This document shows positions 26,752-31,553 of a stretch of 64,000 nt of DNA, one piece after another. The position numbers and the translations under genes were made by a program. The notes below the pieces were generated by a model, which worked only from the letters and a program-made list of their open reading frames with translations, did no database searches and was not told the DNA's origin. Position 1 is the first letter of the stretch. Every line of letters starts with the position of its first letter. Origin of the DNA: a virus; IMG/VR virus record IMGVR_UViG_3300042893_001581, positions 32,001 through 96,000 of that record; one strand, given 5' to 3'.

Positions 26752-28797
26752 ATGGGAATGTCAAAAAATACTCTTGATAGATCAGATATTTCTACTTTTC
26801 CTATAAAGTTAAAATATTCTTCATCTTATGCAAGTTCATCTGCTGTAAGTTATGGAATAACTTTAAATAGAGGAATTAATGGATCTTTTAATTCTGACGG
26901 AGAAGATTTTCTAGTATATAAATTAGCTAAACAACTATATTATAATTCTTATTTAACTGGATCTTTAAATAATACTGCAAGTGCTTGGAATGACAATTTA
27001 CAATCCACGGCAGCATCAGGTACTTTTGATAATGATTATAGATATTTTCCAACTACATCGGGTGATGAAATAACAGTATTAGCAATACCTAGGACTGTTT
27101 TTGGTGAAAATATAAGTAGAAAAAGTTTTGTATTATCAGGAACTACTTATAATTTAATTGATGACGGTAATGGAAATGTTATAGATGTAAATAATAATAA
27201 CGTACATGTAGGAAATATATTATATGCTCAAGGAATAGTTATTATTACAAATTTAGATTATGAGTATGCTCTAATACAAACAACGACAACGACAACTACT
27301 ACTAGTACTACATCAACTACTACTACTGCGGCACCTACAACCACTACTACTAGTACAACAACTAGTACAACTACGGCTGCGCCGACTACTACTACTAGTA
27401 CAACAACTAGTACAACTACGGCTGCGCCGACTACTACTACTAGTACAACAACTAGTACAACTACGGCAGAGCCGACTACTACTACTAGTACAACAACTAG
27501 TACAACTACGGCAGAGCCGACTACTACTACTAGTACAACAACTAGTACAACAACAGAAACTCCAACAACTACCACAACTACTAGTACAACCACTAGTACA
27601 ACAACTGTTGCATCTACAAACCATTTTAGAAGTGTAACTCCTCAAAGTAGTGCTGCTAACGCTTGTCTACAAAGTACACCGAATGATATCTATACTTCTG
27701 TAGCAACATCTACTATGGCAAACAGTATTGTATTCTATTCAGATGCTAATTTAAACACTGTTTTTAATGGTGCAAGCCAATGGTTCAAAATATTATGGAA
27801 AGGATCTGTAGGATTTGATGATATTTATGCAGTACAAATTAATTCGTCAGGTGTAGTGTTAAATTGGGAATACTGCCCAACAACTACCACAACAACTAGT
27901 ACAACAACAGGAGTTCCTACAACCACTACAACTAGTACAACGACTAGTACAACAACAGAAGTTCCTACAACCACTACAACTAGTACAACGACTAGTACAA
28001 CTACAGCAGCTTGTTATGAATATGTAGCAACGGCAGGCCAAACAGATATAGATAATTCAGATAATGGAACTGTTTATTTTAACTATACAGATTGTGATGG
28101 AAATCCTCAAACTCTTAGCAGAGGAACAACTACTCCAAGCAATCCAGTTTGTGCTATAAATGTAGGAAGTGTTTATATATTAATAGGAGGAAATCAATCC
28201 GCAGCTGGAAGCAGTTCATGGAGTACACCTGGAACACAGTGTAATGGAGCTCCAACGACCACAACTACTAGCACTACAACAGAAGCTCCGACAACAACTA
28301 CTACTAGCACGACTACTAGTACTACAACTGTAGTACCTACTACAACAACGACTAGTACAACTACATCAACAACAACAGAAACTCCAACAACAACTACTAC
28401 TAGTACAACAACTAGTACTACAACTGCAGAACCAACTACAACTACAACGACAACTAGTACAACTACATCAACAACTACAGCAGAGCCTACTACAACCACA
28501 ACAAGTACAACTACAACAACTACAACTATAGCTTGTTATGAATATATAGCTACAGCAGATCAAACAGATATAGATAATTCTGATAACGGAACTGTTTATT
28601 TTGAGTATGTTGATTGTGATGGAGTAACCCAAACACTAACTAGAGGAACAACAACTCCAAGTGATCCGGTATGTGCAAGAAGCGTAGGATCAGTTTATAT
28701 ATTAATAGGAGGAAATGCATCAGCTGCAGGTGGTAGTTCTTGGAGCGTACCTGGTACACAATGTAATCCTGGTGGCGGTGGTGGAGGTGGAGCGTAA
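26752..28797 (+). CDS. Virion protein with mucin-like Thr-rich stalks and Cys-rich domains
   Basis: N-terminal ~175 aa paralogous to 25694-26728; then three poly-Thr/Ser/Pro tracts separating one unique and two duplicated Cys domains; ends PGGGGGGA. Confidence 0.75.
   Translation: MGMSKNTLDRSDISTFPIKLKYSSSYASSSAVSYGITLNRGINGSFNSDGEDFLVYKLAKQLYYNSYLTGSLNNTASAWNDNLQSTAASGTFDNDYRYFPTTSGDEITVLAIPRTVFGENISRKSFVLSGTTYNLIDDGNGNVIDVNNNNVHVGNILYAQGIVIITNLDYEYALIQTTTTTTTTSTTSTTTTAAPTTTTTSTTTSTTTAAPTTTTSTTTSTTTAAPTTTTSTTTSTTTAEPTTTTSTTTSTTTAEPTTTTSTTTSTTTETPTTTTTTSTTTSTTTVASTNHFRSVTPQSSAANACLQSTPNDIYTSVATSTMANSIVFYSDANLNTVFNGASQWFKILWKGSVGFDDIYAVQINSSGVVLNWEYCPTTTTTTSTTTGVPTTTTTSTTTSTTTEVPTTTTTSTTTSTTTAACYEYVATAGQTDIDNSDNGTVYFNYTDCDGNPQTLSRGTTTPSNPVCAINVGSVYILIGGNQSAAGSSSWSTPGTQCNGAPTTTTTSTTTEAPTTTTTSTTTSTTTVVPTTTTTSTTTSTTTETPTTTTTSTTTSTTTAEPTTTTTTTSTTTSTTTAEPTTTTTSTTTTTTTIACYEYIATADQTDIDNSDNGTVYFEYVDCDGVTQTLTRGTTTPSDPVCARSVGSVYILIGGNASAAGGSSWSVPGTQCNPGGGGGGGA
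27376..27555 (+). repeat. Near-perfect 45-bp tandem repeat (about 4 copies) encoding A(A/E)PTTTTSTTTSTTT
   Basis: Units start at 27376, 27421, 27466 and 27511. Confidence 0.9.
28009..28770 (+). repeat. Duplicated ~80-aa four-Cys domain (about 28009-28246 and 28531-28767)
   Basis: ACYEY.ATA.QTDIDNSDNGTVYF.Y.DCDG..VCA..PGTQCN occurs twice. Confidence 0.9.
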
Positions 28798-28836
28798 CAA
28801 CTTTCACAATATTTATTAATATAAAATAAAACTGTT

Positions 28837-29793
28837 ATGAAAAATTTACGTTATATTTGTGCTCAACCTAGATTGGTTTATTATGCTTGGCAAGTAGAAG
28901 TTATGATTAATAATTTCATTAAGAATGGAATTAATCCTAATAATATAGATATTCTTGTAGCTTGGAATCCTAATGATGATACAAGTAAGCCAGAGACTAT
29001 TGAGATGTGGAATAAACTTACAGCTCATTATAATACTGTCAGATTCTTTTTTTATGAAGATACTAGGAAAAAGCCTATACACTACATTTCATCCATTAGG
29101 CCAAACATACTGAAGCAACACTTTAAAGCTCACCCTGAATTAAAAGACGAGGCAATATTTTATCATGATTGTGATATTTTATTTACTAAGCCTGTTGATT
29201 GGACTAATCTATTAAATGATGATATTTGGTATTTAAGTGATACCAATAGTTATATAAACTCCTCGTACATACTTTCTAAGGGTGAGGATGTTTACAACAA
29301 GATGTGTGAGATTGTTGGTATAGATTCAATAGTACCAAAACTAATGAACTCTAATTCAGGTGGTGCACAGTACATACTAAAAAATGTAGGTTGGGAATAT
29401 TGGACAAAAGTAGAACAAGATTCTGAAAACTTATTTTACCAAATAAATCAACTAAATCATAAGAAGAAAGAAGAAGATCCATCTCATCATGAACTTCAAA
29501 TATGGTGTGCAGATATGTGGGCCGTGTTGTGGAACGGGTGGCTTTGGGGTAATGAAACAAAGGTAATTAAAGAAATGGATTTTAGTTGGGCAACAGATTC
29601 AGAAGAACGATTTAATGAAACAAATATATTTCATAATGCAGGAGTAACTTGTTCTTGTGGAGGAAAGTTTTATAAAGCTAACTATAGAGATTCACTTCCT
29701 TATAATTTAGATCTTAGAATAAAAGAAGGAATGGCAAGTTATAAATACTATCAAGAAATTCAAGAAGTAGAAAAAAAATCTTCTTTATTGTGA
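28837..29793 (+). CDS. Putative peptide O-glycosyltransferase (HPAT/SGT1, GT95/GT96-like)
   Basis: YYAWQ, SIRP..LKQHF, DxD motif (HDCD.LF.KP), WCADMWA; resembles the YxxWQ / NxP / DxD / WxxEMY motifs of plant HPAT/SGT. Confidence 0.55.
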   Translation: MKNLRYICAQPRLVYYAWQVEVMINNFIKNGINPNNIDILVAWNPNDDTSKPETIEMWNKLTAHYNTVRFFFYEDTRKKPIHYISSIRPNILKQHFKAHPELKDEAIFYHDCDILFTKPVDWTNLLNDDIWYLSDTNSYINSSYILSKGEDVYNKMCEIVGIDSIVPKLMNSNSGGAQYILKNVGWEYWTKVEQDSENLFYQINQLNHKKKEEDPSHHELQIWCADMWAVLWNGWLWGNETKVIKEMDFSWATDSEERFNETNIFHNAGVTCSCGGKFYKANYRDSLPYNLDLRIKEGMASYKYYQEIQEVEKKSSLL

Positions 29794-29804
29794 TTAAATA
29801 AATT

Positions 29805-30380: not shown

Positions 30381-31242
30381 AGCTCTATACGGAAATAAAG
30401 ATTGCACTCAACAAATTAAGTCTAAAATTGTAAATGATAAATTAATAGTTAGATCATGTAACGATATTATAGGTGATACACTTCCTGGAGTTATAAAATA
30501 TCTTGAAGTAGATATAGAGCATAAAAATAAAATTTATAATGAAAAAATTAAAGAGGGAGAGTTATTAGTTTTTCCTAAATCAAAAAATAATAAATTAGGA
30601 ATTTTTTATTCTAATAATCATGTCTCTCAAACTTATCCTACTATAAAAAAATCTTTAGATACAATAAAAATAGCATCAGAAGGAAAAGCAGATATTTTAA
30701 CTTGTATGTGGAATCACGAACCTGATAATCCATTTCCTGAATTTATTTCTTGGGTAAAGATATCTAGCCACCTAAATCAATTGCTTCAAATAATGCATTT
30801 ATTATATCAAGCAAGAGAGATTAATAATTATAATTATGTTTCTTTTCTAGAACATGATGTTCTTTATCCAGAAGGATATTTTGATTATCCAGAAATAAAT
30901 GATGGAGAAGTTTTAACTAATATGAATTATATGGGGATTTGCAGAAGCGGTTGGCAAAGTTTAGGGCAGTTAGATCAACCATTTCATCAAATGACTATGA
31001 AATTTTCAGAAGCAATAAAACATTGTGAATCTATATTGTCTAATGCGTTAATAAGAAATTCAGGTCTTATAGAACCTCAAAATATTATCAGAAAAACTTG
31101 GAATTGTATTAATCCCTCTGTCCATGTTAATCATGGATATCATTTTACTTCTCACTTTAATGTGTACAGAAAAGATGATATTTTTCACGAACATTCATAT
31201 TGGGGAATTTTTGAAAACTATAAGTATTTATTTGAGTTTTAA
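30367..31242 (+). CDS. Lectin-like N-terminal domain + GT-A glycosyltransferase
   Basis: IIKALYG..DCT..ND..GD..PG..KYL (SUEL/DUF3395-like); FLEHDVLYP. Confidence 0.55.
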   Translation: MLIIKALYGNKDCTQQIKSKIVNDKLIVRSCNDIIGDTLPGVIKYLEVDIEHKNKIYNEKIKEGELLVFPKSKNNKLGIFYSNNHVSQTYPTIKKSLDTIKIASEGKADILTCMWNHEPDNPFPEFISWVKISSHLNQLLQIMHLLYQAREINNYNYVSFLEHDVLYPEGYFDYPEINDGEVLTNMNYMGICRSGWQSLGQLDQPFHQMTMKFSEAIKHCESILSNALIRNSGLIEPQNIIRKTWNCINPSVHVNHGYHFTSHFNVYRKDDIFHEHSYWGIFENYKYLFEF

Positions 31243-31253
31243 TATTTATAAGT

Positions 31254-31553
31254 ATGCCATCTTATTCTGCATATACACTTAATTTAGTAGCCGAGACAAC
31301 TGTATACCAAAACGAAGTTAGGTGTAGGGTGAAGGAAAATGATTTTAACTATACGTTAAATCCGAGTGCAAATAAAGCAGGAACCTCAGGTTCTTATATA
31401 GATGCAGTAACAGGTTCAGACTTTCATCCTTATACAACCACAGTAGGATTATATAATGATAAAGATGAGTTATTAGTAGTTGGAAAATTATCTAGGCCAT
31501 ATCCAATTCCACCTAATACAGATATGACTTTTATTATAAGGTGGGATAGTTAA
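31254..31553 (+). CDS. Stand-alone C-terminal domain of the split virion protein
   Basis: FNYTLNPS..YTTTVGLYNDKDELLVVGKLSRP aligns to the C-terminus of 25694-26728; own ATATTTAT 4 nt upstream. Confidence 0.7.
   Translation: MPSYSAYTLNLVAETTVYQNEVRCRVKENDFNYTLNPSANKAGTSGSYIDAVTGSDFHPYTTTVGLYNDKDELLVVGKLSRPYPIPPNTDMTFIIRWDS

Follow-up and report, generated by a model that had tools for sequence, protein, structure and literature searches.

A candidate O-glycosylation cassette beside a threonine-rich baseplate fibre gene of a freshwater phage

A Thr/Ser-rich fibre gene and the three genes behind it

The window investigated here is a 64,000-nt stretch of a single viral record (IMGVR_UViG_3300042893_001581, positions 32,001–96,000), and the subject is a block of plus-strand genes between positions 26752 and 31553 of this window that may form a phage O-glycosylation cassette. 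The block opens with an open reading frame (ORF; 26752–28797) for a fibre protein of 681 amino acids (aa), of which 217 are Thr, 80 Ser and 28 Pro, Thr and Ser together making up 44 % of the product. The protein begins with a domain (aa 1–173; 26752–27270) that was recognized by homology to the N-terminal halves of proteins in relatives. Three tracts were delimited by composition: tract 1 (aa 174–290; 27271–27621), with 79 Thr, 15 Ser and 6 Pro, tract 2 (aa 374–421; 27871–28014) and tract 3 (aa 499–595; 28246–28536). Each consists of approximately 80 % Thr plus Ser, with a few Ala, Glu, Pro and Val residues; they are encoded by repeat units of 45–48 nt, the repeats of tract 1 being about 15 aa long (e.g. 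APTTTTSTTTSTTTA). Tracts 1 and 2 are separated by a small globular domain (domain A; 27622–27870) bracketed by Cys305 and Cys375, and tracts 2 and 3 by a four-Cys domain (domain B, aa 421–497; 28012–28242), whilst a second four-Cys domain (B′, aa 595–671), a poly-Gly tail and the stop codon complete the ORF (28534–28797). The original prediction, made from the sequence alone, had described a virion-module protein with long Thr/Ser/Pro tracts between small Cys-rich domains; the three tracts and the Cys-bracketed domains were found as described, with Pro at only about 6 % of each tract.

Domains B and B′ are 77 aa each and 83 % identical to one another. Domain B matched no Pfam or PHROG family, and a combined language-model and structure look-up gave scores of at most 0.82 and template-modelling scores of 0.47–0.59 over short stretches, which serve as leads only. 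Homologues of the N-terminal half were present in 47 of 82 related loci, compared with one of the 82 for domain A and two for domain B. The presence of the Cys domains in just one or two related loci would fit hypervariable domains at the stalk end that act in adhesion or receptor binding.

The fibre ORF is followed by three glycosyltransferase (GT)-like genes, with gaps of 39, 11 and -14 nt. The first (28837–29793) encodes a 318-aa protein that was assigned to family phrog_4417 by profile match and modelled by AlphaFold2 (AF2) as a soluble GT-A enzyme with a GT8-like fold. The second (29805–30380) encodes a 191-aa GT2-like protein, for which the match to PF00535 (Glycos_transf_2, E 2.5e-4) was below the cut-off and the NCBIfam GT2 match was weak. 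The third (30367–31242) encodes a 291-aa protein whose predicted structure (mean predicted local distance difference test, pLDDT, 90) comprises an N-terminal β domain of unknown kind, which the original prediction had taken for a lectin, and a GT-A domain, which matched SpsA (E 6e-6) and contains a conserved E162-H163-D164. A run of three GT-like genes directly behind the tract protein had been predicted, and this is borne out by the GT-A models of the first and third products and the weak GT2 match of the second. No membrane segment was found in any of the three enzymes.

Fold and family of the first enzyme and its linkage to Thr/Ser tracts

The 318-aa protein matched phrog_4417 (‘unknown function’) with an E value of 3e-63; it had no Pfam match at E ≤ 0.1 and no NCBIfam family, and no published report on the phrog_4417 enzyme family was found in the literature searched. 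A word-indexed search returned 3,677 homologues and an exhaustive search gave 862 clusters at 50 % identity. The AF2 model, obtained with a 44-sequence alignment (pLDDT 97), is a single Rossmann-like α/β/α domain of the GT-A type, and Foldseek matched it to many GT-A chains with a probability of 1.0. Alignment with solved GT-A structures using VIA-align gave Z scores of 13–15 over 220–246 residues (glycogenin 15.1, LgtC 14.7, the Skp1 α-galactosyltransferase AgtA 14.2, the UGGT catalytic domain 14.1, WbbM 13.8 and GlyE, PDB 5gvw, 13.2). The GT8 enzymes glycogenin and LgtC headed this list, with GT24, GT77-type and GT6 chains tied within about 1 Z.

The likeness to the retaining GT8 enzymes glycogenin and LgtC covers the GT-A fold over approximately 230 residues (Z about 15, root-mean-square deviation 3.5 Å), the DxD motif and, towards the C-terminal end, a conserved His-x-x-Gly … Lys. 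The DxD of the 318-aa enzyme is H-D111-C-D113, which follows the fourth strand. Across 44 family representatives D113, H266 and K280 were invariant and D111 (at least 90 %) and G269 nearly so, and both Asp residues of the DxD were invariant in a 63-sequence subfamily alignment. Unlike GT8, however, the enzyme has an extra helical insert (aa 186–236) and a distinct conserved W/Q/M-W motif, identity is only 8–10 %, and no match to Pfam Glyco_transf_8 was obtained for the 318-aa protein (E ≤ 0.1) or among the 44 representatives. The highest 19-residue Kyte–Doolittle mean was 0.73, in keeping with a protein that has no membrane segment. Judged by its predicted structure, the product of 28837–29793 is a GT-A, GT8-like glycosyltransferase of the retaining type. 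The structural search proposed with the original prediction thus gave a GT-A, GT8-like fold, with protein-directed and lipopolysaccharide (LPS)-directed enzymes alike tied among the best matches, so that the fold indicates the chemistry rather than the acceptor.

Elsewhere, the family domain is fused to GT6, GT2, Gly_transf_sug, GT7C, methyltransferase and radical-SAM/SPASM domains; in the 658-aa relative P0129, for example, radical-SAM/SPASM domains are joined to the GT domain. When the family profile was compared with PDB sequences, TALE repeats gave matches of only 30 residues, which were taken as chance because of a short glycine-rich stretch.

The 318-aa enzyme had also been likened to plant hydroxyproline O-arabinosyltransferases (HPATs, GT95) and peptidyl-serine galactosyltransferase (SGT1, GT96), which place the first sugar on repetitive proteins rich in hydroxy-amino acids, as is proposed here for the phage enzyme. 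HPATs have been described as Golgi-localized and as related to GT8 (PMC4908140). The Pfam HPAT model PF23452 was not matched by the 318-aa protein at E ≤ 0.1, and was matched by two of the 44 representatives at E ≤ 1 (best 1.3e-4). One of these two, P0253, which is 38 % identical to the window protein, scored 21.9 bits against a gathering cut-off of 23.9, in a match that was colinear over about 230 positions (9–230 of the 307 in the profile). In the 63-member subfamily alignment of P0253, that protein alone matched PF23452 at E ≤ 0.01, the other 62 giving no match, and a homologue search from the relative with the weak PF23452 match returned only phage-type proteins. Neighbour clusters in a protein-language-model search contained PF23452 in 10 % of their members. 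The PF23452 hidden Markov model had no match in five phage genomes with family members, a result that is uninformative since the control genomes also had none.

The phage enzyme further differs from HPATs in lacking a type II anchor and in its proposed acceptor, Thr/Ser rather than hydroxyproline. The HPAT likeness is faint: it is favoured by the colinear match of P0253, below cut-off as that is, and by the GT8-like fold, and disfavoured by the unmatched window protein and the missing anchor. A GT8-like fold, together with the relatedness of HPATs to GT8, makes distant kinship plausible; in our reading the 318-aa enzyme is not itself an HPAT member.

Linkage between the enzyme family and Thr/Ser tracts (stretches of at least 20 aa) was examined in 135 family-member loci, for which IMG/VR was queried with three distant representatives as well as the window protein, two isolates being added. 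The gene at position -1 relative to the enzyme carried a tract in 83 of 129 loci (64 %), compared with a tract rate of 0–1.6 % downstream of the enzyme or more than four genes from it, the rate beyond four genes being 0.4–1.6 %. The link was present in 18 of 27 enzyme clusters (70 % identity). Once the tracts were masked, their carriers fell into 11 unrelated scaffold families, with major tail proteins of 218 aa at one extreme and fibres of 2,000 aa at the other. As an absence control, relatives were chosen by the neighbouring 219-aa gene, giving 55 complete regions: 49 had neither enzyme nor tract, two had both, two had the enzyme only and two had a short tract only (Fisher p = 0.02, not corrected for kinship). 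Co-occurrence of this GT with poly-Thr genes, an expectation of the original prediction, was thus found at position -1, across many scaffolds and in the control. In a lineage of approximately 60 kb (about 58–67 kb) in which the enzyme is not beside a tract, poly-Thr genes were present elsewhere in all four genomes that were at least 94 % complete. Flavobacterium phage immuto was not represented among the 77 phage proteins that matched the family, and its 160 kb gave no poly-Thr match.

Two isolates extend this picture. Enterococcus phage phiFL1A has a single annotated GT, the family member gp51, whose gene comes directly after that of the major tail protein and before those of the tail chaperones; its major head and major tail proteins both terminate in poly-Thr runs. 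Chryseobacterium phage MA9V-3 (65310–66861, 85027–85067 and 93939–94012), which encodes the closest isolate homologue of the 318-aa GT (39 % identity), has Thr/Ser tracts in two genes adjoining the GT and in two further genes at a distance of 20–30 kb.

Proposed mechanism and alternative explanations

We consider it probable (at roughly 0.7) that the block is a phage-encoded cytoplasmic O-glycosylation cassette for the Thr tracts of the fibre. Beyond the gene anatomy, the GT-A fold with its DxD motif and the family–tract linkage, we infer the acceptor, the priming enzyme, the sugar used and the role of the glycan as follows. The conserved N-terminal domain would anchor the 681-aa protein in the baseplate, and the three mucin-like tracts would space the small distal domains with their bracketing Cys residues. 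The soluble 318-aa GT-A enzyme would act in the cytoplasm of the host, late in infection, moving a sugar from a nucleotide sugar to the Thr/Ser hydroxyls, and the GT2-like and β-domain/GT-A enzymes would then lengthen the glycan. This would yield a stiff stalk, coated with sugar and resistant to proteases, that shows variable adhesin-like domains, shields the particle, or both. The 318-aa enzyme most likely primes, because it is the only member that is always present and because its relative is the sole annotated GT in phiFL1A.

A broader version of this proposal, to which we give even odds, is that the members of phrog_4417 are distant kin of HPAT/GT8 that work as soluble O-glycosyltransferases on peptides and prime the poly-Thr ‘mucin’ segments of phage particles across Bacteroidota-type freshwater myoviruses and Firmicutes siphoviruses. 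The freshwater lineage would then combine this enzyme with swappable extending GTs and hypervariable distal domains, and the resulting strain-specific mucin stalks would be determinants of host range or shielding.

The idea of phage O-glycosylation of a Thr-rich virion protein is strongly backed by co-occurrence across genomes. Several points weigh against the proposal: the support is genomic and structural throughout rather than chemical, and Thr/Pro-rich linkers can function sugar-free. In six loci the enzyme lies behind a bare N-half of 176–191 aa with no tract, and L092 (a 334-kb phage), L041/42 and L108/109 are without a tract nearby or in the genome. Furthermore, the linkage counts overstate the number of independent events because the loci are interrelated. 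In the fold comparison, LgtC, which acts on lipooligosaccharide, and WbbM, which acts on O-antigen, tie with the protein-directed enzymes.

The last point would also suit a different function, in which the GTs alter the host's surface glycans (the O-chain of LPS, or the capsule), blocking superinfection or preparing the surface, and the tracts are plain flexible linkers that happen to be close by. Modification of the host O-chain is the published reading of GT8-type genes in the fibre region of aquatic T4-like phages and in the pelagimyophage host-recognition cluster (PMC7029224), and the window itself contains a nucleotide-sugar cluster with a further GT2. Surface remodelling is nevertheless quite unlikely in our view, given that the family adjoins tracts borne by 11 unrelated scaffolds, is missing from relatives that lack them and occurs in the head–tail operon of Gram-positive siphophages, and that membrane segments are missing from all three enzymes and no flippase or polymerase gene was present among the cassette genes scanned. 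At least for the phrog_4417 family, the linkage argues for a virion target over the host O-chain.

Alternatively, the tracts could be glycosylated with the 318-aa enzyme acting as an extender and priming left to the 291-aa protein, the 191-aa protein or a host enzyme. UGGT, Skp1 AgtA, GlyE and LgtC, all among the closest folds, act on an existing sugar, and the 291-aa protein co-occurs with the 318-aa enzyme in 33 of 82 loci. We regard this arrangement as unlikely: the 318-aa family is constant whilst its partners vary or are missing, the family member of phiFL1A is the only annotated GT beside Thr-tailed capsid and tail proteins, and glycogenin, one of the tied best matches, glycosylates a protein side chain directly. 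Phage GTs commonly act on DNA (PMC12619734), and cassette enzymes that act on hypermodified bases of the phage genome to evade restriction might also be envisaged. This is very improbable for genes found in an operon of late structural genes and with a linkage to Thr tracts, and no base-hydroxymethylase was noted among the window ORFs scanned, in a scan that was not exhaustive.

A cytoplasmic O-glycosylation cassette would have parallels in two known systems. Virion glycosylation has been reported for the mycobacteriophages Che8, Corndog and Myrna (Freeman et al. 2023, Cell Host Microbe 31:1216, as cited in PMC12619734); in mycobacteriophages the glycans are described as sitting on the C-terminal ends of the capsid and tail tube subunits (PMC12619734). 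The mycobacteriophage system resembles the present one in that phage GTs adjoin structural genes and that virion surface proteins made in the cytoplasm are the substrates (as proposed here), and the Thr tails of phiFL1A are located at the same sites, the C-termini of capsid and tail tube proteins. Also shared are the position of the GT genes in or beside the structural operon and the presence of Ser/Thr-rich virion segments that come and go with the GT. The enzyme family, in contrast, is a different and unnamed one (phrog_4417, no Pfam), and the hosts are of the Bacteroidota type and Firmicutes rather than Actinobacteria. The proposed substrate in the window is a baseplate fibre with mucin-like tracts that are internal and total approximately 260 residues, compared with a short C-terminal tail, and the system includes a swappable multi-GT cassette. 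To our knowledge, virion glycosylation has been demonstrated chemically for mycobacteriophages only. In the literature searched, no experimental glycosylation was found for capsid or tail proteins of Enterococcus or Lactobacillus phages, or for Thr-rich phage fibres.

The best mechanistic analogue is the cytoplasmic glycosylation of serine-rich-repeat adhesins. These Gram-positive adhesins are glycosylated by a GtfA/GtfB primer and then by GT8 enzymes, such as GlyE for PsrP of S. pneumoniae. As in the mechanism proposed here, soluble cytoplasmic GTs act on long Ser/Thr repeats before export and the extenders are variable. That system is bacterial, however, and its primer is a GT-B (GT4) pair, none of which was seen in the phage cassette; its adhesin is exported by the accessory Sec pathway, whereas the phage fibre is built into the virion.

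If the proposal is true, sugar-coated phages would be common in lakes and among the phages of enterococci, lactobacilli, lactococci and staphylococci, with a bearing on phage–host recognition and on immune recognition of therapeutic phages. It would also bear on the reading of the many ‘LPS-type’ GTs in aquatic phages, which are now ascribed to host O-chain modification (PMC7029224), and would provide a soluble enzyme from the bacterial world for simple poly-Thr tags, of use in glyco-engineering.

Surroundings of the cassette

The cassette appears to sit inside a split structural gene. A 99-aa ORF (31254–31553, plus strand) behind the third GT-like gene was recognized by similarity as the detached C-terminal half of that gene, and it resembles the C-terminus of a 344-aa paralogue (25694–26728). 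The 357-aa gp105 of phage immuto aligns colinearly first with the N-domain of the fibre protein, at residues 62–234 of gp105, and then with the 99-aa ORF. Many relatives keep an unsplit gene for 300–370 aa; in others, the N-half continues into 600–1,260 residues with no Thr tracts and no GTs, and a small separate C-half follows. The sites at which the split was observed are 26752–27270 and 31254–31553 in the window and L083:8372–9445. We propose, from these alignments, that aa 1–173 of the 681-aa protein correspond to one half of a split gene of the baseplate module, a conserved half that anchors the protein in the virion. The differing cargoes in relatives indicate that swapping at the split site is general, the Thr-tract/GT cassette being one of several cargoes. 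The block is closed by a SegE-type GIY-YIG homing endonuclease gene (31564–32019, plus strand; PF19835, E 2.5e-25), which is kept at the block end in 43 of 82 related loci and is present also in relatives without the cassette. This endonuclease may drive exchange of the neighbouring cargo.

The accessory genes were likewise variable. The 191-aa GT2-like gene was present in two of the 82 related loci only and is thus a variable cassette member, and amongst close relatives the genes behind the 318-aa homologue differ, encoding GT2, GT6, Gly_transf_sug, Fringe-like or radical-SAM proteins instead of the two present here. Varied accessory genes behind the enzyme would be expected if the glycan diversifies. 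A radical-SAM/SPASM gene lies directly 3′ of the GT in two loci (L016:8954–9985 and L017:8954–9985) whose N-half is free of Thr tracts. As peptides are the usual targets of SPASM enzymes, the substrate in these loci, too, may be a protein.

The GT genes had been said to be headed by the same motif as the structural genes, and this applied to the first of them only. The motif ATATTTAT (28809–28816, plus strand), a candidate late-promoter element shared with structural genes, lies 21 nt before the start of the first GT gene; it also precedes the 99-aa ORF (motif at 31242) and positions 12939, 16727 and 25023, and was not found before 29805 or 30367. It was rejected as a motif enriched across the window (30 matches compared with 22 ± 4.6 expected), and a scan for sigma-70 promoters and terminators yielded no more than chance. 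Between the motif and the GT start, at 28826–28832, all four lake metagenome runs compared with the window differ from it at three places (A>T, +A, C>T).

The plus strand from approximately 10.7 to 32 kb is a myovirus baseplate/fibre module that includes gp25-like (17167–17580) and gp6-like (17583–19442) wedge genes and, upstream of the 681-aa ORF, genes for proteins of 1364, 219 and 344 aa. Comparison of these three with PDB sequences gave nothing useful. The closest isolate found for the 1364-aa gene was phage immuto (35 % identity), and megablast of 24000–34000 against phage isolates gave no match. The host of the window phage is probably a member of the Bacteroidota. The 219-aa protein (25023–25682), of unknown fold, is unusually conserved and 75 % identical to its counterpart in phage immuto; at least about 600 IMG/VR stretches match it, of which 80 loci, 71–98 % identical, were kept. 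The genes downstream of this conserved gene are hypervariable.

At least 87 % of the sampled words of the stretch were present in 24 lake or freshwater runs from 21 studies. This near-unchanged recurrence in lake-water metagenomes indicates that the stretch represents a real, recurrent freshwater phage. Single contigs of other runs span 27972–32100, and the exact length of tract 1 was not bridged among the contigs listed. No RNA run was listed among the sequencing runs containing the stretch.

On the minus strand, a nucleotide-sugar-type cluster occupies 54667–64000 and includes the GT2 mentioned above and an RmlD-like short-chain dehydrogenase/reductase (SDR). It also encodes an acetolactate-synthase-like three-domain thiamine pyrophosphate enzyme (phrog_11199), an AroB-related sugar-phosphate cyclase (TIGR04425, 338 bits, below the cut-off), a FabG-like SDR, an HpcH-type aldolase and a methyltransferase-like protein, together with two ORFs resembling nucleoside diphosphate (NDP)-hexose 4,6-dehydratases. 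This cluster could be a donor-sugar pathway for the cassette.

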